The notes under the pieces are model-generated. The model was given only the letters and a program-made list of their open reading frames with translations. It had not been told where the DNA came from and searched no databases. From an uncultured Alphaproteobacteria bacterium (GTDB lineage Bacteria > Pseudomonadota > Alphaproteobacteria > Rs-D84): a DNA stretch of 64,000 bases. Position numbers and translations under genes: made by a program. Shown one piece after another: positions 6,922 through 63,794 of this stretch. The stretch is from the NCBI GenBank assembly GCA_944389135.1, contig CALXLG010000001.1, forward strand, positions 89,421-153,420, read 5' to 3'. The stretch's first letter is position 1; every line of letters starts with the position of its first letter.

Positions 6922-6934
6922 TAAAGGAAATAGA

Positions 6935-8978: not shown

Positions 8979-8981
8979 ATT

Positions 8982-9827
8982 TTATATATTTAATTCTTTA
9001 AATCTTTCTGGAATTTTTGCGACCCATTTTAAGCCAAGCATCGCAGGTTTGTTCATGTCGTATATAGGGCGCAGGAAGGTCTGCAAGATTCTTGCTGCCT
9101 TTATAGATTTATTTTTGTTTTTTGATTCTGTTATAATTTCTATCGTTCTGGCGCGCTTTTTTAGGTGCTTTTCCCAAGATGGGTTTCTGTCGCCAATTTT
9201 GTTTTTTATCATATCTAAATCAACACCACCAAAATGTAATAAGTATAAATTTTTATCAATATGGAAATTATGACCTTTTACGCTGTGAAAACCGCTGCCC
9301 CAGGTTGCTGGTTTCATCAAAACAACAGGTTTGGTATATCTTGTTGATAGTAAAGCATAGTTTCTTTGTTCTAAAAAGTTTTTATTCATATCTAATTTCT
9401 TTTCAGAATTTAAATCTTGACCGATATCTAACCCCAGACCAGAAACAGATGTTTTGTTCTTTATTGTTGATAAGTATTCCTTTAAAGAAATGTTAAGGGC
9501 AGGGTCAATAATTAAAAATTCATCACAATCACAACCGATAACAATATCATAACCTTTTTTGAACAGTTCGTTGGCTAGACTTGATAACAAAAGAATTCTT
9601 GTTTTGTCACCACGTTGTACGGCTTCTTCTTTGTGAGGTAATTTTTTTATGTTTGCTTTTCCTGCATTAGATGGTGCGGTTTGGTCTATGCCATCTAAGT
9701 AAATATATAAATTTTCTGTGCCAATTTGTTCGCCATAATATTTTATCCAGCGACTAAGAAAAAAGTCATCGTTTCTTGCCATAGTGATGGCGGCAATCCG
9801 CTTTATATTGAAAGAATTCTTTTTCAT
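8982..9827 (-). CDS. GT2-like glycosyltransferase (Glyco_tranf_2_4 / PF13704-like)
   Basis: 281 aa; ITMARNDDFFLSRWIKYYGEQIGTENLYIYLDGIDQ resembles TMVKNE...W..YH...G..hfyIYDN motif of that family. Confidence 0.45.
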   Translation of the reverse strand: MKKNSFNIKRIAAITMARNDDFFLSRWIKYYGEQIGTENLYIYLDGIDQTAPSNAGKANIKKLPHKEEAVQRGDKTRILLLSSLANELFKKGYDIVIGCDCDEFLIIDPALNISLKEYLSTIKNKTSVSGLGLDIGQDLNSEKKLDMNKNFLEQRNYALLSTRYTKPVVLMKPATWGSGFHSVKGHNFHIDKNLYLLHFGGVDLDMIKNKIGDRNPSWEKHLKKRARTIEIITESKNKNKSIKAARILQTFLRPIYDMNKPAMLGLKWVAKIPERFKELNI

Positions 9828-10672
9828 ATCCCCTCTACAAAAATTTTGCGTAAAGCATAGGTAATTTTTCTAATGATTATTTTAATCGGATTTTTTGTTA
9901 AAAGCCAGTTTATATATTTTTCCCCGTATACTCGTTTTGCATTTATTAATATCACATCAGAAACATTTTTGTTTGTATGATTTAATACATATAATATTTG
10001 ACGACCTAATTCACCATTGTGTCTGGTAAATGCCGCTTTTTTGATAAAAGGCAAACCTTGTTGGTAAAGGCTTTTGACATTGTTATATATTTTTCTGCCA
10101 GATACACTATATAGACAATTCCATTTAAGACCATGGTCTAAAACAAGCTTTGAAAAACCTTGTTCGTATAATTTTGTTACAGTTCCTTTGTCGGATTGTT
10201 TTTTTATGCTGCAAATAAATTTATCAAACCAATCGGTTAGAAAAACTTTTCGTGTGCAACCTATAAACCAAGATTGTATATGCGGATGTTTTGGATGCGG
10301 GTTGCAAACAAGACCGAAAGCATCGGTTTGCATATTTTCCATTTTATTTAAATATTCTGTAATGTCTTTTAATGGACCATATACAGAATCATTAACCAGA
10401 TATAAAAAATCGTAATTTCCTAAAATATTTTGTTTTTTTGCATATAAATATGCGCGTTTATAAGAACCAAAATCATATTCGCCATGTCTTGTTGCGTCAG
10501 AAAAAAGACAGGCTTTTTCAAATTTTTTAAGCTGTTCTTTATTGCAATCAGAATCCATAAATAAAATAACATCACCGTTTTTTTTGAGGCTTTGCACTAA
10601 ATATAGCAGAGATTGGTCTGCTATGTTTTGTGCGTCATATCCTGCAACTAAAAATAGTCGTTTAGGCTTCAT
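9824..10672 (-). CDS. putative polysaccharide/LPS biosynthesis protein (glycosyltransferase-like, family uncertain)
   Basis: 282 aa; LVAGYDAQNIADQSLLYLVQSL...LFMDSDC; co-oriented and overlapping with neighbouring GT gene; possibly RgpF-like but unverified. Confidence 0.35.
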   Translation of the reverse strand: MKPKRLFLVAGYDAQNIADQSLLYLVQSLKKNGDVILFMDSDCNKEQLKKFEKACLFSDATRHGEYDFGSYKRAYLYAKKQNILGNYDFLYLVNDSVYGPLKDITEYLNKMENMQTDAFGLVCNPHPKHPHIQSWFIGCTRKVFLTDWFDKFICSIKKQSDKGTVTKLYEQGFSKLVLDHGLKWNCLYSVSGRKIYNNVKSLYQQGLPFIKKAAFTRHNGELGRQILYVLNHTNKNVSDVILINAKRVYGEKYINWLLTKNPIKIIIRKITYALRKIFVEGI

Positions 10673-12497
10673 TGTTTTTTCTGGTCTTTTTACGAATATT
10701 GCTGTCTAACTCTTTTTTGCGTAGACGAATTGTTGCAGGCGTTACTTCAACCAGTTCATCATCTTGAATGTAAGACAAAGCTTCTTCTAATGACATTTTA
10801 CGTGGTGGCGCCAAGAATAACTTTTCATCTGCTGTTACAGAGCGCATATTTGTTAGTTCTTTACCTTTTATCGGGTTTACTTCCAAATCGTTTTCTTTAC
10901 TGTGTTCGCCGATAATCATTCCAGAATATACTTCTGTCTGTGGGCCAATGAATAATGTGCCACGTGGTTGCAAGTTAAATAAAGCATAAGTTGCAGCTGT
11001 GCCATTTTCCATTGATACTAATACGCCTGGTCTGTATTGCTGTATTGGTCCACGATATTCTTCGTATCCAGAAAAGACGCGGTTCATGATACCTGTTCCT
11101 CTGGTGTCTGTACGGAATTCCGATAAATAACCAATTAAACCACGTGAAGGTGCAGAGAATACAATTCTTGTTTTTCCAGCACCTGATGACTTCATTTCTG
11201 TTATTGTAGCTTTACGCTTTGTCATTTTTTCTATAACCACACCACTAAATTCATCGTCGACATCAATAACGACTTCTTCTATGGGTTCCAGTTTTTCACC
11301 GTTTTCACCTTCGTGCATTACAACACGTGGGCGTGAAACAGAAAGTTCAAATCCTTCACGACGCATTGTTTCGATTAATATACCAAGTTGCAGTTCTCCG
11401 CGCCCAGATACTTCAAATGCTTCATTGTTTTCACTTTGTGTAACGCGCAAGGCGATATTTGTTTCTGCTTCTTTGAATAAGCGTTCACCAATCATACGAG
11501 ATGTTAATTTCTTACCAGATTTCCCAGCAAGTGGCGATGTGTTAACAAAGAACGTCATCGTTAAGGTTGGTGGATCAATAGGCATTGCAGGAATAGGTTC
11601 AGTTACTTCTGGTGCGCAAAGCGTATCTGCCACAGTTGCTTTTGAAAACCCAGCAACAACGACAATGTCACCAGCAGATGCAGAATCTAGTGATACTTTT
11701 TCAACCCCACGATGTTCAATAATTTTTGTTATTTTGGCGTTTTCTATAAATTCGCCTTTCATGTTAATTGCTTTTACAGCTTGACCAACTTTTACTGTGC
11801 CTGATTCGATCTTTCCTGTTAATATTCTGCCGACATAAGGGTCTGCTTCTAGCGTTGTCGCCAGCATTTTAAAAGGTGCGTCAAGCTGACAGCGGGTACC
11901 ATTGCAATCTGGAGCAGGTACATGATCTATTATCAATTGAAATAAAGGTGTTAAATCTTTGTGTTCGTCGTTTAAATCGCGTACTGCCCAACCGTCACGC
12001 CCAACTGCATATAAGTATGGAAAGTCCAACTGAGAATCTGTCGCACCTAGCTTATCAAACAAATCAAATGTTTCTGTTAAGACTTCTTCTGGACGTGCAT
12101 CAGCACGGTCTACTTTATTTATACAAACAATAGGACGTAGTCCCAGTTTTAATGCTTTGGATAATACAAATTTTGTCTGTGGCAGTGGGCCTTCAGCTGC
12201 ATCAACTAATAATACTACACCATCTACCATAGATAAAATACGTTCTACTTCGCCACCAAAGTCTGCGTGCCCCGGTGTATCTACTATATTAATTTTATAC
12301 CCGTTCCATAAAATAGACGTTGGTTTTGCAGAAATAGTTATTCCACGTTCACGCTCAATATCCCCGCTGTCCATAACACGCTCTGCAACTTTTTCATTTT
12401 CACGAAATGTTCCTGCTTGTTTTAACATGTTGTCAACCAACGTTGTTTTCCCGTGGTCAACGTGCGCTATAATTGCAATATTACGAATTTTCATCAA
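10662..12497 (-). CDS. typA: translational GTPase TypA/BipA
   Basis: 611 aa; AHVDHGKTTL G1, DTPGHADF G3, NKVD G4; EF-G-like domains. Confidence 0.9.
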   Translation of the reverse strand: MMKIRNIAIIAHVDHGKTTLVDNMLKQAGTFRENEKVAERVMDSGDIERERGITISAKPTSILWNGYKINIVDTPGHADFGGEVERILSMVDGVVLLVDAAEGPLPQTKFVLSKALKLGLRPIVCINKVDRADARPEEVLTETFDLFDKLGATDSQLDFPYLYAVGRDGWAVRDLNDEHKDLTPLFQLIIDHVPAPDCNGTRCQLDAPFKMLATTLEADPYVGRILTGKIESGTVKVGQAVKAINMKGEFIENAKITKIIEHRGVEKVSLDSASAGDIVVVAGFSKATVADTLCAPEVTEPIPAMPIDPPTLTMTFFVNTSPLAGKSGKKLTSRMIGERLFKEAETNIALRVTQSENNEAFEVSGRGELQLGILIETMRREGFELSVSRPRVVMHEGENGEKLEPIEEVVIDVDDEFSGVVIEKMTKRKATITEMKSSGAGKTRIVFSAPSRGLIGYLSEFRTDTRGTGIMNRVFSGYEEYRGPIQQYRPGVLVSMENGTAATYALFNLQPRGTLFIGPQTEVYSGMIIGEHSKENDLEVNPIKGKELTNMRSVTADEKLFLAPPRKMSLEEALSYIQDDELVEVTPATIRLRKKELDSNIRKKTRKNNEA

Positions 12498-15747: not shown

Positions 15748-16248
15748 TTTCTTTCCAAAGTGTTTCTTTAGTATTTCATATGCAGCGGAAATTTTTGTAA
15801 ATTGTATCGCAGATTGTTCTTTTTCTTTTGCGGTGTCGGGGTGATATTTTTTTGCAAGCATTCTATATTTTGCAGAAATTTCACGCCAAGATGCAGTTAT
15901 AGGTAATTCAAATGTTTTTAATGCAGAAACAACGTTAAATGGCAGTTTGCTGCGCGCTGGCATCTTATCAAAAGTCCCACGACCAGATATAAAGTCATTT
16001 AAGAATTTTACATAATCTGCTTCATCGGCATTTGCTTGTGCTTTGTCTTTTAATGGGGCACCAAATGTTTGGCGTTCCCAATCGGCTTCTATTTCTTCTG
16101 GTGTCATGTCCGCATAATAATTCCAGTTTTTATTGTATTCTGCGGCATGCTCTTTACAGAAAAACCAATAGTCTTTTAGTTCGCGCGTTTTGGGTGCACG
16201 ACAAGTACCGGCTTTTGTGCAGCCTGGATGATCACATTTCCTTATCAT
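15745..16248 (-). CDS. J-domain (DnaJ-like) protein with N-terminal Cys-rich segment
   Basis: 167 aa; C-terminal REISAKYRMLAKKYHPD J-domain with HPD tripeptide; N-terminal CDHPGC...C...FC cysteine cluster. Confidence 0.65.
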   Translation of the reverse strand: MIRKCDHPGCTKAGTCRAPKTRELKDYWFFCKEHAAEYNKNWNYYADMTPEEIEADWERQTFGAPLKDKAQANADEADYVKFLNDFISGRGTFDKMPARSKLPFNVVSALKTFELPITASWREISAKYRMLAKKYHPDTAKEKEQSAIQFTKISAAYEILKKHFGKK

Positions 16249-17111
16249 ATATCTGAGTCCTTTTTATGCCCAAGCGGATGATGCATGGTTACCGTTTCGC
16301 GTAATTTTTCCGGCAATACATGCGTATAAATTTGTGTTGTGGATATATCTTCATGACCCAACATCATTTGTATGGCACGTAAATTTGCCCCACCTGCTAG
16401 TAAATGAGATGCAAAAGAATGTCTCAGTACGTGTGGACTTACTCTGTGCGGGTCAATGCCAGCAAGCACTGCACATTTTTTTAGAATCTTAAAAAAGCCG
16501 TCCCTTGTTATGTGTCCATCTTTACCGTTTGATGGAAATACATATTTAGATTTTTCATCGCCTCTGATATTAATCCATTTTTCAAGTGCTTCTATTGCGC
16601 GTTCATGCATGGGTACGATTCGTTCCTTGGCACCTTTACCATGTATTAAAAGTTTGTCGCCAAGTATCGCCGTCATTGGTAATTCACATAATTCTGAAAC
16701 ACGCAGACCAGATGCATATAATAATTCTATCATTGCGCGAAGGCGGGTAGAATTTTTTATATCTCCTGCAGAAGATATTAATAATTCAATTTCATTTAAC
16801 GATAAAAATTTTGGCAAACTTCTGGTGCGCTTTGGCAGTTCTAAATTAGCAGACGGGTTTTCGGTAATTATTTTTTCCAACATTAAAAACTTATAGAACC
16901 CCCTTAAAGCACTTGCCTTACGTGCAATAGAAGACGGTTTATCAGGTAGGTTTGAAAGGTATTGCTGTAATTCGTCAGCAGTTGCTTTCATTAACCCACA
17001 TGGTAAATTTTCATCTGCATGATGCAAATCACTGGCATAGCTTTCCAGTGTTTTCTTACTGCGTCCTTTTTCTGCAGATAGAGCTTCTAAGAAAACTTCT
17101 ATATAGTTCAT
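16245..17111 (-). CDS. xerD: site-specific tyrosine recombinase XerD/XerC family
   Basis: Catalytic motifs LRHSFASHLL...GHEDISTTQIYTHV (R-H-R-Y); probable start MNYIEVFLEAL at 17111 (ORF extends to 17195); XerD vs XerC assignment tentative. Confidence 0.75.
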   Translation of the reverse strand: MNYIEVFLEALSAEKGRSKKTLESYASDLHHADENLPCGLMKATADELQQYLSNLPDKPSSIARKASALRGFYKFLMLEKIITENPSANLELPKRTRSLPKFLSLNEIELLISSAGDIKNSTRLRAMIELLYASGLRVSELCELPMTAILGDKLLIHGKGAKERIVPMHERAIEALEKWINIRGDEKSKYVFPSNGKDGHITRDGFFKILKKCAVLAGIDPHRVSPHVLRHSFASHLLAGGANLRAIQMMLGHEDISTTQIYTHVLPEKLRETVTMHHPLGHKKDSDI

Positions 17112-17251
17112 GGGAATAAAACAATTTCTGTTACGTTTTGAGCAGGTGGAAAATATATTATCATCAGTACGATTAGTACTATTATAACCGTCCATATTAT
17201 AACTTTATTTCGTGTTGTGTTCTTTTTCCTTATAGGCATTGATTCACCTTT

Positions 17252-18310
17252 TTATATTGTATCAAAACTTGCGATAAATGCACCGGCACCTGCAATGATT
17301 ATCAACTGTGGGGCGACAATTGCCAATATTGGAGGCAAAGCACCAGTAGAGCCAAGTGCATTAAATAAATTTGTTAAGAAATATACCGCAAAACATGTTA
17401 ATATACCCAAACTAAATTTTAAGCCAAAGCTATAATTTCTTCTTTGTCTGGTCTGTGAAAATGCGACACCAAGTGTTGCCATTGCAATCATTGTTATTGG
17501 TAAGAATAACAATGTCCAAAGCTGAACAAGATGCCCACGTACAGGAACACCAATTGACTGCATCTTTTTTATAAAACTTGGTAATTCCCAAAAAGAAATT
17601 TGGTCTGGTTGTAAATATCTGTCTAATACAGTGCGTGGTGTAAGAAGAGTTTTTGTTTGCCATGACGATGTTTTAATTGCACCTGATGCATCAAGTATTT
17701 GAGCATTATTTGCAGTAAGCCCCGATTCTGATAACGTAATTGTGTTTGCTTCCACACGTTCGGTCAGTTTAAATTTATTGTTTTGAACGTATACAGTTGC
17801 ATCGTCAAATAGCAATATGTTTCCAGACTTATGCATATTTTTTGCGGTCATAGTTATATAACCAGTATCAGATTGTTCTCGTAACCAAATAGCGTTGTCT
17901 ATTAATACCAGGTGGTCTGGCGTAATATTTTTCTCGTTCAGACCAACAGAATAGGGATTAACAATTGTTGTCGCAATTATACCAATTAAAGCGGCGCCAA
18001 TTAAAAAAGGACGTGCCATTTGATATGGAGATAAACCTGCGCTGGCAACAATAATTTTTTCGCTAGATTTTGTTAAGTTATAAGATGCCAATAAAGTCCC
18101 CATAAAGACTGCCAACGGTAAGAACAACGGGACGTATTCTAATAATCTGACCCAAGATTCATACAATGCAGCTGAAACGGTCGGGTTTGACGGTAATCTT
18201 TCTACGAATGTAACGGCCAGTATTATGCCGCAAACCACAAGCATAACAAGTCCAAAACCCGAAAAAAATCGGCGCATTAAAAATCTATTTAAAATATTAA
18301 ATTTAAACAT
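17252..18310 (-). CDS. LptF/LptG-family LPS export permease (YjgP/YjgQ)
   Basis: 352 aa; N-terminal ILNRFLMRRFF + TM segments, large periplasmic beta-jellyroll region, C-terminal TMs typical of LptF/G. Confidence 0.65.
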   Translation of the reverse strand: MFKFNILNRFLMRRFFSGFGLVMLVVCGIILAVTFVERLPSNPTVSAALYESWVRLLEYVPLFLPLAVFMGTLLASYNLTKSSEKIIVASAGLSPYQMARPFLIGAALIGIIATTIVNPYSVGLNEKNITPDHLVLIDNAIWLREQSDTGYITMTAKNMHKSGNILLFDDATVYVQNNKFKLTERVEANTITLSESGLTANNAQILDASGAIKTSSWQTKTLLTPRTVLDRYLQPDQISFWELPSFIKKMQSIGVPVRGHLVQLWTLLFLPITMIAMATLGVAFSQTRQRRNYSFGLKFSLGILTCFAVYFLTNLFNALGSTGALPPILAIVAPQLIIIAGAGAFIASFDTI

Positions 18311-32844: not shown

Positions 32845-34725
32845 ATGTCAGAAAAATTTAGAAATATTGTTACAGGGCCAGAAAAATTGGCTAAACAATT
32901 GCGCGAAGCAATAGAAAAAATGTCGCCAAAAGATTATGTAAAGCGTAATAGAGCGAAAAAAAATGCTTCTGGTAAAAAAGATGAAAATGCTGCAATAAAA
33001 GATAATATTGCAACTGGTTCATTAATGGCTATGAAGGGCGGGGCGTGGCTTGCAGCAGGTGGTGCACAGTTTTTATTAACGTTGGCGAGGTGGTTGACAC
33101 TCGACAATCAATTTATTAGAAATATGGAAGAGAAATATAAAAAAATAAATTTAGAGGAAGTAAAAAAATATCAGCCACAAAAGATAAGAAGTTTTGCGAA
33201 AAACTATCCTAATGTATCATCTCATATTATATGGTATTTTATGCTGTCTGCAACGCTTTTTGGGGGTAAATTCGTTGTTAATTCTAAAAATATGAATGAT
33301 TACAAAAAGTCGTTAATAGATTGGATAGATGATTTGAAATGGAATGATATTGATAAAGAAACTCAATATATTTCCCCAAATAGAGAAGATTTTATAAATG
33401 CGGCATTGGAAGAGTATTGGTCAGAAGTTGCAGTTGGGTTAACAGAATTAGAAACTTACAGGGCAATACCGAAAAGGCATTCTGGTGAAAAGCGTTACAC
33501 TAATGGTTTGGGGTGTACATGGCATTATGTATATAACGAAAATGGAAAGTTAAAACAAGTTGGAAATACCAGCAATACAAGGGCAAATTCAAAAGAATAT
33601 AATTACGAACAGGCGAAAAGACATCTTAAATATGAAACATTAAAAAAGTTAAAAACAGCGATGCTTGGCAAGAAAAATATGAATGGCAAATATGCTGTTG
33701 CGTTAATTTTGGCAGGTTATCAAAGACCTGTGGATATTTCACATATTGCTGCAAGAATAGAAAATGCAAATAATGCCCAAGAAGTTGCGGATGCGTTTAT
33801 GTATATAGGGAAAGACGGGCAAAGATGGAAAAATGGGACTTTGAAGCGTCGTTGGGTTTGTGCTGCGTATGCACTAAATTTGATAAATTCGGCGGATTTA
33901 TTAGAAATGAATCGAGATAGTTTTTCAAAGGTTGAATTGAATAATATCATAAGAAATGGACATTTTTTATTAGATGCAGAAACCGTTAAATTTGTTTTGA
34001 GCAGAACGAATTCTAATTCAACTGTGAAAGAATTTCTAAGTGATTTTCCAGAAGGAAAGAAAATATTGGCTCAAGTAGATGCTGTGGACAACAGTAAAAC
34101 AATAAATCTTGAAGTATTTAATCAACAAGATAAAAAAATAGAAAATTCTATGGCTTGTGTAAATAAGGGAGATAAAAAATTTAAACGAAAAAAATTTGAA
34201 GATGCAAAAGATTTGTATGCCAAGGCTATCGAAATAGATCCTGATAATATGAATGCATATACTGCTTTGGCAGAAACTTATAATAAATTAGGGCATAAAA
34301 ATAATTCAATAGAATATTATAAAAAAGTTACTGAAACTGTTTCTGCTTGTAATAAAAGAATGAATAAAAATAAAAGTTTATTGTATGATAGGGATATAAA
34401 AGCAGAAACTTATTATGCTGCCGGAGTGGCTAGGTTTGAAATGGCTGAAATATATAAAAAATCTGGTGATGATAAATTGGCTAATGAAAATTATAACCTG
34501 GCAAAAAAGAATTTTGAAACAGCAATTTATAATTGTAAAAATGGTAGCGAAGAAGCAACTGATTTAAAAGTTTATGAAGATGCTTTGAAACGAGTAAAGG
34601 AAAAATTAAAGACTAAAAAAATTGCTTTTAATTCAGCAAAAAATATTTTGAATAAAGAAATAAAAGAAAAAAATGCTGTATATGCATGGAAGCAGGCAAT
34701 GCGAAGTGATAATAATTTAGCATAA
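32845..34725 (+). CDS. large hypothetical protein with phage-lysozyme-like (GH24-like) central region and C-terminal TPR repeats
   Basis: 626 aa; segment SGEKRYTNGLG..., YAVALILAGYQ, ADAFMYIGKDG...LKRRWVCAAY parallels lambda/P22-type lysozyme motifs (E...AY.D..G, ALxSLxFNxG, ADAFLxWxKAGK...RRRxERALF); C-terminus KFEDAKDLYAKAIEIDPDNMNAYTALAETYNKLG is canonical TPR. Confidence 0.45.
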   Translation: MSEKFRNIVTGPEKLAKQLREAIEKMSPKDYVKRNRAKKNASGKKDENAAIKDNIATGSLMAMKGGAWLAAGGAQFLLTLARWLTLDNQFIRNMEEKYKKINLEEVKKYQPQKIRSFAKNYPNVSSHIIWYFMLSATLFGGKFVVNSKNMNDYKKSLIDWIDDLKWNDIDKETQYISPNREDFINAALEEYWSEVAVGLTELETYRAIPKRHSGEKRYTNGLGCTWHYVYNENGKLKQVGNTSNTRANSKEYNYEQAKRHLKYETLKKLKTAMLGKKNMNGKYAVALILAGYQRPVDISHIAARIENANNAQEVADAFMYIGKDGQRWKNGTLKRRWVCAAYALNLINSADLLEMNRDSFSKVELNNIIRNGHFLLDAETVKFVLSRTNSNSTVKEFLSDFPEGKKILAQVDAVDNSKTINLEVFNQQDKKIENSMACVNKGDKKFKRKKFEDAKDLYAKAIEIDPDNMNAYTALAETYNKLGHKNNSIEYYKKVTETVSACNKRMNKNKSLLYDRDIKAETYYAAGVARFEMAEIYKKSGDDKLANENYNLAKKNFETAIYNCKNGSEEATDLKVYEDALKRVKEKLKTKKIAFNSAKNILNKEIKEKNAVYAWKQAMRSDNNLA

Positions 34726-34735
34726 GGTTGGAAAG

Positions 34736-36754
34736 ATGAATGTGTTTTTGAATTATAATAATAAGCGTTGGAGAAAATATGAAATTGATTTTCAAAAAAT
34801 CGCCAATGCCGTGGTGGGCTCTATGCACAAAGAGTCAGAAGTTTCAATTATACTTACTGATGATAAAGAAATTCATGCTTTAAACCTAAAGTATAGAAAT
34901 ATAGATAAACCAACAAATGTTCTGTCGTTTGAATTAGGAGATGATATTTTATTAGGTGATATATATATATCTTTGGATACTGTTATCAAAGAAGCAAGAG
35001 AAGCAAAAATTTCTGTGGCGGAGCACACTGCACATATGGTGGTTCATGGTATCTTGCATTTATTAGGATATGACCATCTTAATGATAAAGAAGCCAAGGT
35101 TATGGAAAGCAAAGAAATTAAAATATTACAAAAATTAGGCATTAAGAACCCTTATGAAGAAGATGCTTTTGTTTGTAATAGTAAAGAATGCTGCCCTGGT
35201 AATAAGTTTATGTCTTGGTTGAATAAGCTTAATTTTCGTGAAAATAGTTTTTGGCAATACTTTACATTGGCATTTTTAGGTTTTATAACTTCACTTGGCT
35301 TTGCGCCGTTTCATATGTGGTGGGCCAGTTTAATTGGTATTGCCGGGGCGTATAAATGTTTAACACGTATAAATAATGTTGGTAACTTGTTTAAGACTTT
35401 TGTAAAAGTTTTGCCTTTTAGTTTTGTTTATGCTGTATCAATGTTTTGGTGGGTTGTAAATTCTATATACGTTGTACCAGAACTGACACAGCAATTTGCA
35501 ATTTGGACTTTGCCTGCGTTAATAGGAATCGGTATTTTTGGTGGAATAATATTTGCTTTGCCTTTTGTTGTAGTTTTACGTATACGCACGTTTCCGGCGT
35601 GTAGAGCGTTTTTGTTTGCCTCTGCATGGGTTGTGGTTTTATGGCTGCGCGAGTGGTTGTTGACGGGTTTCCCTTGGAACCCTATTGCAAATATAACTAT
35701 GCCTTTCCCTGTTGTTGCAAATTCAATGTCTTTGTGGGGCGCGTTGGGTTTGAGCTTTATAATTATAGGTTTAATCGCGTCTTTGGTTGAGCTGTTATCT
35801 AACCGTAAAAATAAAACAACATATATTTCATTTTTTGTATTTCTTGTTTTGCTGATAGTTGGATCTGTTTACGGTTATAACAATATAAAAAAATCTGACA
35901 ATATGGGTAATGCAACGCCAGTTATTAGAATTGTGCAACCAGCCCAAAGTGCAACCCAGAAAGCTACTCATTCAAGGGCGGACGCATTAAGAAATGCCGA
36001 AGAAAATGTTAAAATGCTTATGCGTTTAGCTTTGCCAGAGTCAGAAAAAGTAGATTTGGTTGTTTTCCCAGAAACATCTTATCCTTTTGTGATTATGGAT
36101 GGCGACTATATGCCAATATCAGATTTTATGAATAAAAATATTGTTGTTGGCTCGCAATATTACTCTGGTGGAAAAATGTATAATTCTATGTTGATAAGCT
36201 CGGAAAATGGCAGCATAGATAAAATTTATAGCAAATCACATTTGGTGCCTTTCGGTGAATATAGACCTTTGGGTGATATTATTCCAACGCCAGGGCAGTT
36301 GGCGTCAGGGCAGGGAGCAGAAATTATAAGCCTAGAACTTAATGGGCGGACTTTAACTTTCGCGCCTGCGATATGTTATGAAATAATCTTTTCAGATTCT
36401 TTGGTACCAAGACAAACACAACCTGATGCCATTATAAATATTACAAATGATACTTGGTTCGGAAGAACGCCTGGAACTTATCAACATCTTGATATGGTAA
36501 GAAGGTATGCAATTGAATCTGGACTGCCTATAATCAGAGCAAATTATTCTGGTATTAGTGCCTTTGTTTCTGCAAGTGGTCAGATTATATCGGCTCTTCC
36601 AATAGCACAATCTGGAATTTTAGATGGTTTTGTTTGGGGGGCGCATATGACACCATATCGCTTTATTGGCAGAGATGGTTGGATGATTGTGATACTATTA
36701 TTTTCTTGTATATGCACGATATCTTTGTATGCAAAAGAAAAGTATAAAAAATAA
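34736..36754 (+). CDS. ybeY-lnt: fused endoribonuclease YbeY + apolipoprotein N-acyltransferase Lnt (single 672-aa ORF)
   Basis: Residues 1-~145 carry YbeY metal site HGILHLLGYDH; from ~aa 157 (internal MSWLNKL) onward, multi-TM N-terminus and CN-hydrolase domain of Lnt (VVFPETSYPF, ICYEIIF); no stop separates them. Confidence 0.75.
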   Translation: MNVFLNYNNKRWRKYEIDFQKIANAVVGSMHKESEVSIILTDDKEIHALNLKYRNIDKPTNVLSFELGDDILLGDIYISLDTVIKEAREAKISVAEHTAHMVVHGILHLLGYDHLNDKEAKVMESKEIKILQKLGIKNPYEEDAFVCNSKECCPGNKFMSWLNKLNFRENSFWQYFTLAFLGFITSLGFAPFHMWWASLIGIAGAYKCLTRINNVGNLFKTFVKVLPFSFVYAVSMFWWVVNSIYVVPELTQQFAIWTLPALIGIGIFGGIIFALPFVVVLRIRTFPACRAFLFASAWVVVLWLREWLLTGFPWNPIANITMPFPVVANSMSLWGALGLSFIIIGLIASLVELLSNRKNKTTYISFFVFLVLLIVGSVYGYNNIKKSDNMGNATPVIRIVQPAQSATQKATHSRADALRNAEENVKMLMRLALPESEKVDLVVFPETSYPFVIMDGDYMPISDFMNKNIVVGSQYYSGGKMYNSMLISSENGSIDKIYSKSHLVPFGEYRPLGDIIPTPGQLASGQGAEIISLELNGRTLTFAPAICYEIIFSDSLVPRQTQPDAIINITNDTWFGRTPGTYQHLDMVRRYAIESGLPIIRANYSGISAFVSASGQIISALPIAQSGILDGFVWGAHMTPYRFIGRDGWMIVILLFSCICTISLYAKEKYKK

Positions 36755-36854
36755 CTATATAAAACTTGTCTTGGTGTTTGTGAATTTTTATTAAAGAAAA
36801 TATAAAAAATAAACGTAAATTTTATAAACACTAAAGACGAAAAAATCATAATAC

Positions 36855-37058
36855 TCAATTTTTGAGGTTGTTTAAAACCCAAACTCTTATTGCCGAAGAT
36901 AAGTTCGTTTTTGGTGGGCGATTTGAATCAATGGCAGAAATTATACCTGCAATAGATTGGTTCTTGTTTGCTGCAATTTCTTTTAAAGCGTTTATAAATT
37001 CTTCTTCTAATGATATGCTGGTTTGGTGCCCAGATAAAGATACCGATATTTTTTTCAT
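36855..37058 (-). CDS. ribbon-helix-helix (RHH_4-like) protein
   Basis: 67 aa; MKKISVSLSGHQTSISLEEEFINALKEIA...LSSAIRVWVLNNL matches RHH_4 family; 2-nt gap to upstream gene. Confidence 0.55.
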   Translation of the reverse strand: MKKISVSLSGHQTSISLEEEFINALKEIAANKNQSIAGIISAIDSNRPPKTNLSSAIRVWVLNNLKN

Positions 37059-37060
37059 AA

Positions 37061-37495
37061 TTAATTTTTCCCCGCAATTAAACAGTCGGTTAATGCTTTA
37101 TATGGGTCGTCATATTGCCGTAAAACATTTAATGTCATATTGTCCAACATCATGCATGTCCCAAAAGAATCAAATGCAAACCAAAATAAATCATTTCTGC
37201 CGAATACGGTTTTCCCGCGCATGCGATTTATGTCTGATAAATCTTTGTTTACTTGAACAATATCTGGTACAGGAAATTTGTTGTTAACTGAAAATTCTGT
37301 TGGACCAAAGATATAACCATTGCCAAGATTTATACCACCAACGTCTTTGTATAGGTTTATTATAAATGCAGGTAACATTGCTGCCTGTATCTTTTGTAGC
37401 ATGGTATTTGCTAAATCAATATTTTGTTGCGTTTCGGCAGTCGCAAATGTTGCACCGTGCTTTTTTATGTTGGATAAAAATTCTTCCATTGTCAT
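37061..37495 (-). CDS. SUKH-like (Smi1/Knr4/Syd-like) protein
   Basis: 144 aa; MLPAFIINLYKDVGGINLGNGYIFGP resembles SUKH N-terminal LPxxYxxFLxxxNGG motif; family assignment by pattern only. Confidence 0.35.
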   Translation of the reverse strand: MTMEEFLSNIKKHGATFATAETQQNIDLANTMLQKIQAAMLPAFIINLYKDVGGINLGNGYIFGPTEFSVNNKFPVPDIVQVNKDLSDINRMRGKTVFGRNDLFWFAFDSFGTCMMLDNMTLNVLRQYDDPYKALTDCLIAGKN

Positions 37496-37509
37496 TTTTT
37501 ATCCTTTTA

Positions 37510-38016
37510 TTATTCCATGCCACGTTCCGCGGCAAGCTGGGCTGCAAGTTGAGATAACCTGTCGGCTGTCGCGTTTCCGCCGTCACCACCAGATGCAGTA
37601 TGTGCAGGAACATATATCTTTTTAACGGGGTTAGGTAACCATATTTTTTCATTGCCATATTGTTCAATAATAAATCTATCCAATCTATGAGAGTGGGGAA
37701 AAGTGCTGCACATAAACATGTTGTCTAATTCAAGACCGCCGCCAAAAACAAGTGGTATGCGAAATCTAATAGATAAATTTGCAGGCATTCTTTTCCCTGT
37801 TATTAATCCCATAAATTCATCTTGTGATAGATTCATAAATGCAATTTCTTCGGTAGAGTCTGTCAAAGATTCCATAAATTGACGACATAGATTTTTATAT
37901 CGGGTAAACCAATCAGGTGAAAGTTTTACTTTTTCAGGAGCTATACAAATAATTGGCATGTCTTCCATTTTTAAGGCTGCCAATTTTTGTTCGGCTGTTT
38001 CTTGACTCCAATGCAT
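37510..38016 (-). CDS. hypothetical cytoplasmic protein (168 aa), no family recognised
   Basis: ORF translationally coupled (TGATG overlap) to upstream membrane protein; Ala/Gly-rich C-terminal tail. Confidence 0.4.
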   Translation of the reverse strand: MHWSQETAEQKLAALKMEDMPIICIAPEKVKLSPDWFTRYKNLCRQFMESLTDSTEEIAFMNLSQDEFMGLITGKRMPANLSIRFRIPLVFGGGLELDNMFMCSTFPHSHRLDRFIIEQYGNEKIWLPNPVKKIYVPAHTASGGDGGNATADRLSQLAAQLAAERGME

Positions 38017-38942
38017 CAGATTTTACCTATGTAGCTTATAACCGTGTCAATATATTCAGAGTATGCAGCAAAATTATCTTTGTCTTCTTCAGTAATTGGC
38101 GGGTTAGGGTTATTATTTATATAATTTCTTAATTCTTCTATTGTATTAAACATTAAAATATTTTCAAATTCAGATGTTGCTGCGTCTGGCGCATTAATAA
38201 CAAAGCCATTTGTATCAATATAGATATCTTCAAGTGTGTCAGAGAAAATTTGTGATAGTTTGTCTATCATATTACGGATGTCGGTTGTCTTTATGCCCAC
38301 ACCACCAACCCAAAGCGTCTCATTAGAACCAATTGCAAATAATGCAGGTGTTATACCGTTTATGCGAGGGGATTTTTTTACTGTAAAACCGGCCTTGCTG
38401 AAGATTTCTTGTATTTCTGGATTCTCTTGTGATTGTGGCTTTGGTTGTGAAACAGGGGTAATCGTATTTGTTTGTGTGGCAGATACATAGCCTGTGTTAT
38501 TTACAGGTATATTCAATCTTGGTGGGCGGGCAGATGGTATAGGCGCAGGTGACGGCTGAGTAGCTGTAGGTGCTTTTGCCGTTTCTGCTGGTAATAAATC
38601 TAGTGTTGATGCGTCTGCATTAGTTTTTGTTTCTTTTGATTCTATAATTGGTGTGTTGTTTTTGTGTTTTTCTATATGTACTTTTGGTAGCTGTATTCGT
38701 CTTAGACGTGGACGTATTAAAATATATAACCCAAAAATCATTATGAATACGCATATAACAAAAGATATATAAAATGTTGGACTTATAGAATTTTTGCTTG
38801 CTTGTAATTCGGAAAGATATGTCCAATGTGATGCAGAGAATATATTAAATCCGAAAACGGTATTAAACCAAAAGCTTGCCCCAAGTGTTACTGCAAGCAA
38901 CCAAAGTATTCCAAGTAATATATTATCCAGTCTGATTTTCAT
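38016..38942 (-). CDS. two-TM membrane protein with Pro/Thr-rich linker and ZipA-C-like C-terminal domain
   Basis: 308 aa; TMs at ~7-27 and ~56-77; low-complexity PTATQPSPAPIPSARPP linker; C-terminal SKAGFTVKK...GITPALFAIGSNE parallels E. coli ZipA FtsZ-binding domain QQAGFIFGD...GPALFSLAN (from memory). Confidence 0.35.
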   Translation of the reverse strand: MKIRLDNILLGILWLLAVTLGASFWFNTVFGFNIFSASHWTYLSELQASKNSISPTFYISFVICVFIMIFGLYILIRPRLRRIQLPKVHIEKHKNNTPIIESKETKTNADASTLDLLPAETAKAPTATQPSPAPIPSARPPRLNIPVNNTGYVSATQTNTITPVSQPKPQSQENPEIQEIFSKAGFTVKKSPRINGITPALFAIGSNETLWVGGVGIKTTDIRNMIDKLSQIFSDTLEDIYIDTNGFVINAPDAATSEFENILMFNTIEELRNYINNNPNPPITEEDKDNFAAYSEYIDTVISYIGKI

Positions 38943-38986
38943 TATGATTTAAATTATATCATATTTGTGATAAAGTAAAAAGTATT

Positions 38987-39664
38987 ATGATTGATACAGA
39001 TAATATTCTTGATGATAAAAAATTACAAAAACTTGCTTTATGGACGGGGGCAGGAAATGATGCCAATGATTTGGCGTATGTTGCGGAATTCGCAATCGCA
39101 AAAAGTATAAATTTAATTTCTGTTGTGCCCGATAATATTAAGGTTATATGGCCGTGGCTAGAAAACAGCAATATTAAAATATATTCACGATTTTATTTGG
39201 AAAGTAAAAGTGATTCGGTTAAAGATATTTCCGAATTAACAAAAAATATAAATACTGCATTTAAACATGGGGCATCTGGTGTTCAAATTTTTACACATTT
39301 TTCAGAATTAGAAAACTTTGTTGGACAAGTTTCTTTAATAAGAGATGATTTGTTCTTTAATAAAGACCTGTTTATAGGTATGGATATTAATGAAGTAGGA
39401 CCTTTTGATTGGGAAATAATAAAAAAGTATTTAGAAAAAATTAGAGCAACCGGAATACTTTTAGTATTACCCGTTGATACAGGTGATAAGTCAGATTTTG
39501 TTGGTAGAATTTTTGGTGCACTGGAATCCTGGAAAAATGACTTTAGCTTTGATTTGCATTTTTCTTTCGGGGAAGTTGGGGTACGTGCCGAGCAAACAGA
39601 ACGCCTGATAAATAGCATATACCCAGCGCTTTCTAATAATTTAAAGTTCTTTGTAAATATTTAG
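38987..39664 (+). CDS. hypothetical protein
   Basis: 225-aa ORF, no signal peptide, alternating beta/alpha-like pattern (possibly TIM-barrel-like); no family recognised. Confidence 0.35.
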   Translation: MIDTDNILDDKKLQKLALWTGAGNDANDLAYVAEFAIAKSINLISVVPDNIKVIWPWLENSNIKIYSRFYLESKSDSVKDISELTKNINTAFKHGASGVQIFTHFSELENFVGQVSLIRDDLFFNKDLFIGMDINEVGPFDWEIIKKYLEKIRATGILLVLPVDTGDKSDFVGRIFGALESWKNDFSFDLHFSFGEVGVRAEQTERLINSIYPALSNNLKFFVNI

Positions 39665-59203: not shown

Positions 59204-60766
59204 GTGGGGATAAAAAGATATTTATTTTTTGCGTTAATAACGTATCTGTTTGTGCATTTTCAAGCAGGTGCGCAAGATGTTATTTATAATGATATTGTTG
59301 GTGATGATATAGATGTTGTTAATGATTTTATTGTTACAGATACAGGCAGTATAGACTTTGAAACTATAAATATATGTAATTCAGTTTTTGTTACAAATAG
59401 CGGTAAAATTACGGGTGATATTAATGTGCATGCAGGTAGTACTTTGTATATTCAAAGTAGTGGTTCTGTAAATAGCGATTTTACGCTTGGGGATAATTCT
59501 GCAGTTGTTCAAGTGGTAAACTCAAAGAAAGATCTTAAAAACATAAATTTTAATGTTGAATATAGTTTACTTGTGTCTGCTAAAGATGGTGTGTCTTTAA
59601 ATCAAATAATGTCAATGGGGGCAGATGCAAAGGAAATTGTTTTTAATGAAAGTGTTTTGAAATTAGATGCTCTAAAGGTTTTGAGGCTTAGTAGTATTAC
59701 TAGCCCAGAAATAAAGCTGGTTGGTAACAATATTTTATATGCAGATGCCGTTTTAGAAAATCAACCTATATTATCTAATGTAACAGGGAACGGTACATTA
59801 TATATTTATGATAGGTCTTTGTCGCCCTTGTATGCGATACAATCTTATGTGAAAAACGGGAATGTATTTGGTGAAATAGTTAGAGAGACAGATTATTCTA
59901 AAATTCTAAAAAATACTATGGGAGAGTTTCTTGATGATTTGCGTATCAGCGAGCCAAATAATAAGTTGTTACCAGTTATGGATTCGGCAAATTCTTTTGA
60001 AGATTTATATAAGATTATATCAGATTCAGTAAAATTAAATCCTATAAAGTTAATTGAACCGATTCGTGTTTTAAGTGATTTTAGTTCTTTGTTTACAGAT
60101 GGTGATAGTGGGTATACATACGGTGTTTTACCAATTCTTATTTATTCAGATGCTTTTTATACTTATGGTGGAAAAGTTATTTTGTCTCCTGCAATTTTAA
60201 ATGATGTAAAACTCTCTATGTCAATATACACTGCATATACAGCGTTTTCTGATTATGTAAATGATTTTAATGCTACAACAAACGGTGCAGACCTTTTTGT
60301 CAGTTATGAAAAGAATTTATATTCTATTGATTTGATGCTTGGGGCGTCTTCAACGCGCTTTGATGTAGGAGACGTTTTTGATGAAGGAGTTATTGTTAAT
60401 AACCCGTCTGGGTTATCTGTTTATTCATATGCAAATGTTGGCAGGAAGTTTTTGCTTGAAGAAGATTTAGTTATAAAACCATTTATTAATGTCAGTGCAG
60501 ACTATGTAAAAGTATCTAGTCAAAAAGATACGGATTTAGATACAGGTGCTGGGGCAGAAATATCTTTCTTGTATGATGATTTTGATATCTCGTACGAGTA
60601 TGGTGCAAAAATACGTGCTTTAGTTTCAGGGCAAGTTGGTGCGTCTTTTAATATGACGTTTATATCTGATATAGACGGTCTTGCTGGTTCAATAGAGTTT
60701 GGTACGTTATATGACAATGACGATTTTGCTTATGGAATTAGGGCAGGGGCTAGTTTTAACTTTTAA
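59204..60766 (+). CDS. autotransporter-like outer-membrane protein (passenger + C-terminal beta-barrel)
   Basis: Probable GTG start giving signal peptide MGIKRYLFFALITYLFVHFQAGA; N-terminal repetitive beta-helix-like passenger (VTDTGSIDF..VTNSGKITGDINV..); C-terminal alternating pattern ending GIRAGASFNF. Confidence 0.5.
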   Translation: MGIKRYLFFALITYLFVHFQAGAQDVIYNDIVGDDIDVVNDFIVTDTGSIDFETINICNSVFVTNSGKITGDINVHAGSTLYIQSSGSVNSDFTLGDNSAVVQVVNSKKDLKNINFNVEYSLLVSAKDGVSLNQIMSMGADAKEIVFNESVLKLDALKVLRLSSITSPEIKLVGNNILYADAVLENQPILSNVTGNGTLYIYDRSLSPLYAIQSYVKNGNVFGEIVRETDYSKILKNTMGEFLDDLRISEPNNKLLPVMDSANSFEDLYKIISDSVKLNPIKLIEPIRVLSDFSSLFTDGDSGYTYGVLPILIYSDAFYTYGGKVILSPAILNDVKLSMSIYTAYTAFSDYVNDFNATTNGADLFVSYEKNLYSIDLMLGASSTRFDVGDVFDEGVIVNNPSGLSVYSYANVGRKFLLEEDLVIKPFINVSADYVKVSSQKDTDLDTGAGAEISFLYDDFDISYEYGAKIRALVSGQVGASFNMTFISDIDGLAGSIEFGTLYDNDDFAYGIRAGASFNF

Positions 60767-62060
60767 CTACTTTCCCACGTAAAGAGGCTTTGTTTGCGTC
60801 TGTAATAACTATGTTTGCCATTTGTTCATTTGTACTGTCATTGTTAACAATGCATTGCTGCATATAAGGTGTGCGATAGACTAAATGCTTGCCTGTTTTA
60901 TCAGGGCCTTCACATAAACACAGCATGGTTTTCCCGATGCAAGATTCGTTAAATTCACGTTGAATTTCATTAAGTAAAGAATCTAGCTTTGCCAGTCTTT
61001 CTGCTTTTATAGATTCTGGAATTTGGTCTTTCATTAATGCCGCAGCTGTATGTGGGCGTGGCGAATATTTAAAAGAATAAGAGTTTATGTATTTTATCTT
61101 TTTGGCGATCGCCATCGTTTGTTCAAAGGCTTCTTCTGTTTCGCCAGGAAAACCCACGATAAAATCACTAGATATCTGAATGTCGGGACGTGCAGACTTT
61201 AATTTGTCAACTATATCTATATATAGATTTAGTTCGTACGGGCGATTCATTCTTGTCAATACATTGGGTGCCCCGCTTTGTATAGGCATATTTAAGAAAG
61301 GCAGAAGTTTAGGTTCTTTTTTGAACATTTCTATTAAGTCATCTGTCATTTCTGTAGGATAACTTGAAGTAAATCGTATTCTTTGTATTTCAGAAAGCTT
61401 CGCAGCTTCTTGAATTAAATCTGATAAGCGATATGTTTTTCCAGATGGGGCAGTATATTTATAGCCATTTACATTTTGCCCTAAAAAGCATATTTCAATT
61501 GCGCCCGTTTTTGCGGCATGTATTGTGTCACGCACAACATCTTCAAAAGGTCTTGATACCTCGCGTCCGCGGGTATAGGGTACAATGCAATATGTACAAC
61601 AATGATTACATCCTTCTTGAATGGGTATATATGCAACAGCTGGCGACTTTTCCATTTGCGGCAATTCGTCAAATTTTTCAAGCCCTGTTAAATCAATGTT
61701 TAATAATTTTGTGTCAGGATTTTTTAATATTTCAGGTAATTTATGATAGCTTTGTGGACCCAAAACAAAATTCAAATCAGGAATTCGTTTAAAAGCACTG
61801 CTGCCCGCTTCACGTGCAACGCAGCCTACAATGCCGAAAAGAGCGTCAGGCTTTTTTGCACGACGAACACGCCCCAAAGCAGAAAATACTTTATTCGTTG
61901 CTTTTTCGCGAACCGCGCAGGTGTTTAATATAATTATATCTGCGTCTGATAAAGCGTCAGTTTGTTCAAAACCATATGTTTTTAACATAGCCGCGATTCG
62001 CTGACCGTCATAAACATTCATTTGACAGCCAAAAGTTTGAATAAAGAATTTTCTTGCCAT
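60756..62060 (-). CDS. miaB: tRNA-i6A37 methylthiotransferase MiaB
   Basis: 434 aa; N-terminal MTTase cysteines (FGCQMN), radical-SAM CNHCCTYC, TRAM domain. Confidence 0.9.
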   Translation of the reverse strand: MARKFFIQTFGCQMNVYDGQRIAAMLKTYGFEQTDALSDADIIILNTCAVREKATNKVFSALGRVRRAKKPDALFGIVGCVAREAGSSAFKRIPDLNFVLGPQSYHKLPEILKNPDTKLLNIDLTGLEKFDELPQMEKSPAVAYIPIQEGCNHCCTYCIVPYTRGREVSRPFEDVVRDTIHAAKTGAIEICFLGQNVNGYKYTAPSGKTYRLSDLIQEAAKLSEIQRIRFTSSYPTEMTDDLIEMFKKEPKLLPFLNMPIQSGAPNVLTRMNRPYELNLYIDIVDKLKSARPDIQISSDFIVGFPGETEEAFEQTMAIAKKIKYINSYSFKYSPRPHTAAALMKDQIPESIKAERLAKLDSLLNEIQREFNESCIGKTMLCLCEGPDKTGKHLVYRTPYMQQCIVNNDSTNEQMANIVITDANKASLRGKVVKS

Positions 62061-62273: not shown

Positions 62274-63794
62274 TTAGGATAATTTTTTCCGCAGTAATTC
62301 ATTAACAACAGCTGGGTTTGCTTTGCCTGCAGTTGCTTTCATTACACCGCCTACGAAGAAACCAAGCAACCCAACTTTGCCAGATTTATATTGTTCGACT
62401 TGTGCAGGGTTTGCAGCAATTACATCATCAACGGCTTTTTCAATTGCAGCTGTATCTGTAATTTGCTTCATTCCGAATCGGTCTGCAATTTCTTTTGGTG
62501 TGCCCGATTCGCCGTCTAACATTTTTATAAATATTTCTTTTGCTTGTTTGCCGTTAACTTCATTTGCAGAAATCATATCAACTAATTCTGCTAAATTTTC
62601 TGGTGTTATGATTCGCGCTTCGCCTTGCTCAGCTGTATCCACAGCGTTTTTTACATCCCAATTTTCAGGGTGTGCAAATAGTTCACTTATCATCCAGTTC
62701 GCAATAGGTTTTGCACGTTCTGATTTACCGTTAACAGCACTATCAAACCATTTCGATATGTCTGTCGTTTCTGTCAATCTTGCTGCATCGTATTCGCTTA
62801 AGCCCATATTTATATAACGTACACGTGTCGCTGCAGGTAATTCAGGCATGGTACTGCGAATTCTTTCAATTGTTTCTTCGCTTACTTCCAAAGGCAATAA
62901 GTCTGGGTCTGGGAAATAGCGGTAATCTAATGCATCTTCTTTGCTACGCATTACAGATGTTGTTCCGTCTGATTGACTATATCGCATTGTGTCTTGAGAT
63001 ACTGTACCACCGTTTTCATAAATTTCTATTTGACGACGGGCTTCGTATTCAATTGCTGATTTAATGAATTTAAACGAAACCATGTTTTTTGTTTCTGTGC
63101 GTGTGCGAAATTCTTTTGAACCAACAGGGCGTACAGATACATTTACGTCTGCGCGCATAGAGCCTTCTTCCATGTTTGCTTTTGATACGCCAAGAGCTCG
63201 TGCAATTTCGCGAATTTCACGTAGATAGCGCTCAGCTTCATCCGGAGAAGTTATATATGAATTATTTTCAGGATTTTTTGTATCTAAAAATGTTACGATT
63301 TCTAATAATGCAACACCGGTTCTGTTATAGTCCGCAAAAGATTTTGTCGGATGTACATCGTGTTTTAACTTTCCTGCGTCTTGTTCCAAATGTGCACGTT
63401 CAATTAAAATCTTTTTAGGTTGACCATCGTCACCCATAATTTCAACCCAACCACGACCTACAATTGGTAGCTCTTCGGCAGGTTGTGAAATCTGATAACC
63501 TTGTGGCAGGTCAGGGTAGAAGTACTGTTTACGGGCAAATTTACTTTTTCTTGATATCTCCGCATTTAGACCAAGCCCCATTTTTATTGCTTGTTCAACG
63601 CAGTATTCGTTTAATACAGGCAACATACCTGGCATAGCAACGTCTACCATAGAAACTTGGGTGTTTGGGGCAACTGTTGGATTATAATCGGCAGATGCAC
63701 CACTAAAAAGTTTGCTGTTAGACAGAACTTCTATATGTGTTTCAAGCCCTATAACTAATTCCCAATCTGTTGTTTTGCCTTTTATCGTAAACAT
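62274..63794 (-). CDS. gatB: Asp-tRNA(Asn)/Glu-tRNA(Gln) amidotransferase subunit B
   Basis: 506 aa; N-terminal WELVIGLETHIEV, full GatB layout with C-terminal YqeY-like domain. Confidence 0.95.
   Translation of the reverse strand: MFTIKGKTTDWELVIGLETHIEVLSNSKLFSGASADYNPTVAPNTQVSMVDVAMPGMLPVLNEYCVEQAIKMGLGLNAEISRKSKFARKQYFYPDLPQGYQISQPAEELPIVGRGWVEIMGDDGQPKKILIERAHLEQDAGKLKHDVHPTKSFADYNRTGVALLEIVTFLDTKNPENNSYITSPDEAERYLREIREIARALGVSKANMEEGSMRADVNVSVRPVGSKEFRTRTETKNMVSFKFIKSAIEYEARRQIEIYENGGTVSQDTMRYSQSDGTTSVMRSKEDALDYRYFPDPDLLPLEVSEETIERIRSTMPELPAATRVRYINMGLSEYDAARLTETTDISKWFDSAVNGKSERAKPIANWMISELFAHPENWDVKNAVDTAEQGEARIITPENLAELVDMISANEVNGKQAKEIFIKMLDGESGTPKEIADRFGMKQITDTAAIEKAVDDVIAANPAQVEQYKSGKVGLLGFFVGGVMKATAGKANPAVVNELLRKKLS

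Follow-up and report, generated by a model that had tools for sequence, protein, structure and literature searches.

In a 64,000-nucleotide stretch of DNA (the window) from an uncultured alphaproteobacterium (assembly GCA_944389135.1, contig CALXLG010000001.1, positions 89,421 to 153,420), the gene for the rRNA maturation endoribonuclease YbeY is fused in frame to lnt, the gene for apolipoprotein N-acyltransferase. We consider this a genuine, anciently fixed fusion gene that codes for one bifunctional inner-membrane protein, with a probability of about 0.85. The fusion gene, ybeY::lnt, occupies 34736..36754 on the plus strand, as do all its parts given below, and contains 672 codons plus a stop. 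Its extent was supported by the open reading frame (ORF) list, domain scans and full-length homologs. The frame starts at an ATG, and according to the ORF list and the sequence its sole stop codon is the terminal one. This bears out the single uninterrupted 672-residue frame claimed in an earlier reading of the letters alone (the sequence-only reading).

Both halves were recognized by their family profiles. Pfam assigned YbeY to residues 13–134 of the fusion protein (126.6 bits, cut-off 25; profile positions 5–129 of 129), LNT_N (PF20154) to residues 182–344 (71.8 bits) and CN_hydrolase (PF00795) to residues 399–628 (79.2 bits). The NCBIfam models yielded 135.4 bits for YbeY (TIGR00043, cut-off 45; model positions 6–145 of 146) and 237.4 bits for lnt (TIGR00546, cut-off 132.9; model positions 1–395 of 395). 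Residues 16–141 aligned with residues 21–151 of the 155 residues of Escherichia coli YbeY (1xm5), and residues 173–642 aligned with residues 29–498 of Pseudomonas aeruginosa Lnt (5n6m). Because the profile matches and the alignments with solved structures span each half, both enzymes are complete. Each half is an ordinary member of its family.

The YbeY endoribonuclease domain (34736..35155; PF02130, TIGR00043) comprises residues 1–140 and closes on a conserved K-N-P-Y sequence. Its Zn-binding motif, H104-x3-H108-x5-H114 (35045..35077), was identified by conservation in the aligned homologs. It coincides with the HGILHLLGYDH site that had been placed at about residues 100–115, the motif lying at residues 104–114. 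A cytoplasmic linker follows (residues 141–171; 35156..35248), delimited by conservation, by the proportion of nonsynonymous differences (pN) and by the predicted local distance difference test score (pLDDT). The Lnt membrane domain, with transmembrane helices (TM) 1–7, extends over residues about 172–387 (35249..35896), as indicated by the LNT_N match and the AlphaFold helices. The CN-hydrolase domain, periplasmic in the predicted topology, lies at 35897..36664 (PF00795, TIGR00546). It carries the codons of the catalytic triad, mapped to E. coli Lnt, at 36071–36073 (E446), 36233–36235 (K500) and 36374–36376 (C547). The protein ends with TM8 and a short basic cytoplasmic tail (36665..36751), supported by a hydropathy peak at 644–666, a K/R-rich tail and an AlphaFold helix at 646–671. 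The full Lnt claimed in the sequence-only reading was thus found, but not its N-terminal part of eight TM: seven TM precede the CN-hydrolase domain, and TM8 (about 646–671) follows it. A scan for promoters and terminators showed no excess over shuffled sequence (26 promoter-like sites vs 23 ± 5 expected).

The fused form is conserved across assemblies and species. A word-indexed protein search returned 878 matches at E ≤ 1e-10, and we examined the best 120 clusters at 90% identity. YbeY, LNT_N and CN_hydrolase occurred together in 119 of these 120 (58–97% identity, 661–686 aa). The cluster to which the window protein belongs counts 34 members, most of them 672 aa long; they come from numerous contigs in NCBI, ENA and Logan assemblies. 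An exhaustive HMMER search over 1.84 billion representatives added eight full-length fused clusters at the 50% identity level (35–56% identity, 618–720 aa) and six junction-spanning fragments. The short matches that show only YbeY (P0144, P0145, P0147 and P0248) each extend into the linker or TM1 or are cut short, so they are pieces of fusions and not stand-alone YbeY proteins.

The locus set came from scanning genome contigs with a single protein, which returned six loci. In six GTDB species representatives (L001–L006), all metagenome-assembled genomes (MAGs) of uncultured Alphaproteobacteria or "Rickettsiales" from gut samples, the gene is in frame, codes for 668–672 aa with 56–66% identity to the window protein, and keeps its synteny. 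The sequence-only reading had left a choice between a genuine fusion, a lost stop codon and an assembly artefact, and had proposed a comparison with orthologous loci. Orthologous genomes turned out to be uniformly fused, which favors a genuine, ancient and conserved fusion over the other two. Judged by these homologs, an entire clade of uncultured Alphaproteobacteria, most of them gut-associated, shares the fusion. In NCBI, the proteins bear only the name "apolipoprotein N-acyltransferase". Full-text literature searches for a YbeY–Lnt fusion or for YbeY domain fusions found nothing relevant, and the fusion is apparently undescribed in the literature. One fused YbeY–Lnt, 60% identical to the window protein (P0102), lies on a 308-kb contig labelled 'Muribaculaceae bacterium' (Bacteroidota). 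This contig is probably alphaproteobacterial, and mis-binned or mislabelled.

The membrane topology was modelled with AlphaFold from a 58-sequence alignment (mean pLDDT 83.5, predicted template modelling score 0.72). The model contained helices at residues 172–186, 195–210, 218–243, 248–282, 287–309, 331–355, 360–387 and 646–671. Short K/R-rich loops (281–285, 355–361 and 667–672) alternate with K/R-free ones (248–261 and 310–335). The nitrilase-like domain, 260 residues between TM7 and TM8, is beta-rich in the model. From the model and the positive-inside rule, the Lnt part is therefore predicted to have eight TM, with the N-terminal side of TM1 in the cytoplasm, the nitrilase domain in the periplasm and both termini cytoplasmic. 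Because the N-terminus of Lnt is cytoplasmic in this prediction, YbeY would remain cytoplasmic, and topology does not stand in the way of the fusion. On this model, YbeY is probably membrane-anchored in these bacteria. The pLDDT was about 74–90 in the YbeY domain and 41–61 in the linker (residues 141–170). Within the linker, a short juxtamembrane helix at 154–164, modelled with low pLDDT, runs into TM1.

The linker contains a Cys-rich motif, C147-x4-C152-C153-P154-G155 (35174..35200), which was detected by column conservation. Among 120 homologs, C153, P154 and G155 are conserved at 98, 95 and 97%, respectively, and C147 and C152 at 77%. The C....CC pattern is present in 73 of 125 fused homologs, and 15 keep the CPG cysteine alone. 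The number of linker cysteines varies from 1 to 9 among the variants; five homolog clusters (P0065, P0069, P0071, P0073 and P0107) have a metallothionein-like run of nine, for example ECQCGCGDKCNCKNCSCCSCPG. The deep-branching, short-linker fusions P0123, P0124, P0126 and P0129 have no linker Cys. We tested covariation between the linker cysteines and those of TM8 (C658/C660) and found none. The distribution suggests a metal-binding or redox element that would have been gained after the fusion.

It is conceivable that the tethering of YbeY is adaptive. It would then be no neutral by-product of operon collapse but would link the maturation of 30S subunits, or the quality control of ribosomes, to the membrane or to the biogenesis of the envelope, with a Cys linker that senses metal or redox state and supplies or controls the catalytic Zn of YbeY. 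A linker Cys might conceivably reach the Zn site of YbeY, in the manner of an MMP-like cysteine switch. The linker would perhaps have taken over a role in metal homeostasis after the loss of CorC. We regard this proposal as speculative and unlikely. If true, the fusion would be a Rosetta-stone clue to why ybeY is linked to envelope and lipid genes such as lnt, which has long gone unexplained.

A single frame in the DNA could also give rise to two proteins, either through internal initiation of Lnt, for example at M159, or through proteolysis of the linker. The linker is the least conserved segment of the fusion (0.54–0.56) and the least confidently modelled one, and codon 159 of the window gene is an in-frame ATG (35210..35212), which the sequence-only reading had offered as a separate lnt start. 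The ATG is indeed present, but its use for independent initiation is unsupported as a conserved feature, and we rejected it as such. The M159 column holds Ile in 43% of the homologs and Met in fewer than 10%. Across the seven loci compared (the window and six orthologs), no in-frame ATG or GTG between NPY and TM1 is shared, and the ortholog L003 has neither codon anywhere in this interval. No Shine–Dalgarno-like sequence was found ahead of the M159 ATG (upstream TGCCCTGGTAATAAGTTT). In the deep-branching fusions, only 5–20 residues separate NPY from TM1, which leaves little room for a processing site. Together, these observations make two separate products distinctly improbable. For the intact window protein, the predicted tryptic peptides at the junction include NPYEEDAFVCNSK, ECCPGNK and FMSWLNK.

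The catalytic residues of both enzymes are retained. H104, H108 and H114 of YbeY are invariant in the 58 aligned homologs and 98–99% conserved among 120. The Lnt triad E446/K500/C547 is invariant in 58 of 58 homologs, as are E508, Y548 and E549. We take E446, K500, C547, E508, Y548 and E549 to be the counterparts of E. coli Lnt E267, K335, C387, E343, Y388 and E389. The E. coli reference sequence has 512 aa, and the literature numbering matches at 7 of 7 positions. Seven residues are reported as essential in E. coli Lnt, the triad plus W237, E343, Y388 and E389 (PMC3850990); six of them are invariant in the fusion family.

A codon comparison of the window gene with the six orthologs was used to assess selection. 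Synonymous sites were saturated (proportion of synonymous differences, pS, 0.6–0.9), and pN was 0.17–0.22 for YbeY, 0.21–0.31 for Lnt and 0.37–0.48 for the linker. Since pN is low against a saturated pS, purifying selection at the codon level is strong in both enzymatic domains, and no weaker in YbeY than in Lnt. These values bear on the idea that the YbeY part has lost its nuclease function and now regulates or anchors Lnt from the cytoplasm, leaving rRNA maturation to another protein. We consider this very unlikely: not only the His triad but many further YbeY positions are invariant, YbeY diverges no faster than Lnt, and all close YbeY-only matches are fragments of fusions.

One contig departs from the fused form. 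On scaffold_1094 of ENA ERZ16268235 (L007), which is 99% identical to the window and has identical synteny, separate but overlapping ybeY (185 aa) and lnt (477 aa) genes were called. The corresponding protein entry, the Lnt-only P0005 (99% identical to the window protein), is the sole exception among the 120 best clusters. Alignment of this contig with the window showed that the split results from a 70-bp out-of-frame deletion; the missing stretch is 35275..35344 of the window, and the break in the scaffold is around 4020–4030. The deletion takes out the conserved Lnt TM1 residues G182, G188-F-A-P191 and W195. A frameshifting lesion inside TM1 rules out this contig as the ancestral two-gene state; it is either a secondary lesion or a misassembly on a single scaffold. 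A stop codon between YbeY and Lnt, which the sequence-only reading had named as evidence against a fusion, was not seen, and this only broken contig has the TM1 deletion instead. The same alignment shows a further indel of ~58 bp, which spans the gene's 3' end and the downstream spacer (about 36743–36800). If the 70-bp deletion is real, it would be a natural knockout of Lnt, which E. coli cannot do without. Despite the separate gene calls on this contig, an assembly or sequencing artefact or a recent pseudogenizing stop loss confined to one genome is ruled out for practical purposes. Dozens of independent assemblies have the frame unbroken, as do species with as little as 35% identity; synteny is kept, and both halves are under purifying selection.

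The gene neighborhood gives indications of how the fusion arose. Upstream of it lie rarA on the minus strand, mucR and a gene for a 626-aa tetratricopeptide repeat (TPR) protein, and downstream an RHH_4 gene; the same order is found in all six representatives. The Lys-rich TPR protein (32845–34725, plus strand) has its TPRs at about 437–497, and its gene ends 10 nt before the fusion. It evolves fast, with 27–47% identity and often only partial alignment, while its neighbors show 65–90% in the same genomes. No PhoH or CorC was found among the 20 window ORFs of suitable size, and neither flanks the fusion, in agreement with the local absence of corC and phoH noted from the sequence alone.

Deep fused lineages (P0138/L010, P0129/L012 and P0126/L013) have 33–40% identity to the window protein. 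In all three loci, miaB lies directly upstream of ybeY::lnt, with overlapping stop and start codons. In L010 and L012, gatCAB precedes miaB, and L013 keeps miaB–ybeY::lnt. The window's own miaB (60756-62060, minus strand; Pfam UPF0004 and Radical_SAM) and gatB (62274-63794, minus strand; matched to gatB of the deep fused loci) are 60–64% identical to the genes that adjoin ybeY::lnt in L012 and L013 (about 60% at L012). They now lie about 24 kb from the fusion, on the opposite strand. The window's downstream block (36855..39664, mixed strands) consists of the RHH_4 gene (67 aa), genes for 144, 168 and 308 aa on the minus strand, and one for 225 aa on the plus strand. L012 has these five genes in the same order and orientation (23–56% identity). 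Because L012 shares the downstream genes, the fusion is orthologous between the deep lineages and the window. The four proteins of 144, 168, 308 and 225 aa had no Pfam match; the 308-aa protein shows hydrophobic segments near its N-terminus and a middle region rich in Pro, Thr and Gln.

Judged by these gene orders, the ancestral locus is gatCAB–miaB–ybeY::lnt. The fusion looks like a collapse of the classical miaB–phoH–ybeY–corC–lnt cluster from which phoH and corC are gone. In the window lineage, the block seems to have been interrupted later, right where the fusion gene begins, and a single inversion of ~26 kb (about 34.73–60.76 kb) would fit. The corresponding breakpoints lie at 34726–34735 and about 60756–60766 of the window, and the upstream context is rearranged in all of L001–L006.

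We propose the following course of events and mode of action. The cluster miaB–phoH(ybeZ)–ybeY–corC(ybeX)–lnt would have collapsed by the loss of phoH and corC; ybeY would then have abutted lnt, and the ybeY stop codon would have been lost. Such a step should be topologically neutral, as the N-terminus of Lnt is cytoplasmic. In the resulting protein, the N-terminal 140 residues would form a complete, predicted catalytically intact YbeY in the cytoplasm. A linker of ~30 residues, with its Cys residues and juxtamembrane helix, would connect it to TM1 of Lnt, whose periplasmic nitrilase-like domain (E446/K500/C547) would N-acylate apolipoproteins. On conservation grounds, each domain has most likely kept its canonical function within one protein, so the clade would produce all its YbeY in a 1:1 ratio to Lnt and hold it at the inner membrane. 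It is the enzymatic activities, the lack of post-translational cleavage and the order of the events in the operon collapse that we infer.

Several points weigh against a single ancient fusion that yields one intact, bifunctional protein. The history was examined with a crude, unbootstrapped neighbor-joining tree of the Lnt domains, in which the fused forms make one clade, with the P0135 group and P0141 as exceptions. The unfused subclade P0135, P0137, P0139, P0140 and P0142 nests in the fused clade beside the fused P0126, and the fused P0141 falls outside it, in a different gene context. As far as this tree can be read, the history therefore likely involved a secondary fission, a loss or an independent fusion at least once. 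In P0135, the nearest unfused relative, the upstream 174-aa gene has no match to YbeY or to any other Pfam family, and no pre-fusion intermediate was found there. The gene context of the outgroup unfused Lnt P0175 was uninformative on the origin. Post-translational cleavage in the poorly conserved linker may occur, and a second stand-alone ybeY, or phoH or corC, may exist elsewhere in the genomes of the clade. At the level of residues, the counterpart of E. coli W237 is A410, and the position holds Ala, Met or Ile across the fusion family. Functional mycobacterial Lnts keep only five of the seven essential residues (PMC3850990), so the missing W237 equivalent does not exclude membership in the Lnt family. 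As a side observation, two of the nearest unfused-Lnt relatives, both 'Rickettsiales bacterium' MAGs, carry a type II CRISPR-Cas system (990-aa Cas9, Cas1, Cas2) ~2 kb downstream of lnt (L008 5195–9080 and L009 5106–8991).

The fusion can be compared with three known arrangements. In many Proteobacteria, miaB precedes ybeZ–ybeY–ybeX–lnt. The fused locus matches the ybeZ(phoH)–ybeY–ybeX(corC)–lnt operon in its two enzymes, their order and their orientation, and its deep forms have miaB directly upstream. It differs in the lack of phoH and corC, in the joining of ybeY and lnt into one frame and, in the window lineage, in the position of gatB–miaB ~24 kb away on the other strand. The ybeZ–ybeY–corC–lnt operon itself is documented in E. 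coli and Salmonella (bioRxiv 10.1101/2023.03.20.533420; PMC12421838).

Ppm1 of Mycobacterium tuberculosis (Rv2051c / BCG_2070c) is a fusion of Lnt with a polyprenol-monophosphomannose synthase in which both activities are retained, and the two are separate neighboring genes in M. smegmatis (MSMEG_3860/3859) and in C. glutamicum (ppm2/ppm1) (PMC3850990). As in YbeY–Lnt, a full Lnt is joined to the product of an adjacent gene, and Ppm1 offers a precedent for Lnt anchoring a cytoplasmic enzyme. Its partner, however, is a glycosyltransferase that lies C-terminal to Lnt and belongs to the same lipoprotein-modification pathway, whereas YbeY–Lnt carries an RNase at its N-terminus, and no pathway is known to connect this partner with Lnt. 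A further Lnt fusion was seen in P0151 (816 aa), a full Lnt with a C-terminal extension of ~300 aa and no obvious TM in it; the extension may be kinase-like or phosphotransferase-like.

Membrane-anchored ribonucleases are known in bacteria: RNase E is attached by an amphipathic helix and RNase Y by an N-terminal TM helix. YbeY is normally soluble. The predicted YbeY–Lnt resembles both RNases in placing an RNA-processing endonuclease on the cytoplasmic face of the inner membrane, but its anchor is an entire 8-TM enzyme and not a dedicated helix.

Elsewhere in the window, an Rfam scan found two tRNAs only. A glycosyltransferase and polysaccharide-synthesis cluster (6013–12497; Caps_synth, two GT2, GT2_4 and an RgpF-like gene) adjoins recA (4925–6001). 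The window also contains a XerC/D-type integrase gene (16245–17195) and lptF/G (17252–18310).

YbeY is nearly universal. This Zn-dependent endoribonuclease acts in the maturation of the 16S rRNA 3' end and in the quality control of ribosomes; what exactly it contributes to ribosome biogenesis is under debate. We know of no accepted explanation for the persistent linkage of ybeY to lnt and other membrane genes. The fusion gives mild Rosetta-stone support to the ybeY–lnt linkage. In streamlined genomes, neighboring genes of an operon are often fused, and this fusion may be neutral, without a functional message. Because these proteins are annotated automatically only as Lnt, ybeY would score as missing from the clade in surveys of gene content or completeness. 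The only detectable YbeY of the clade is predicted to be anchored to the inner membrane, which implies that YbeY can function under such confinement and when expressed 1:1 with Lnt, and may profit from both. Nature has thus supplied a construct with which the site of YbeY action could be tested.

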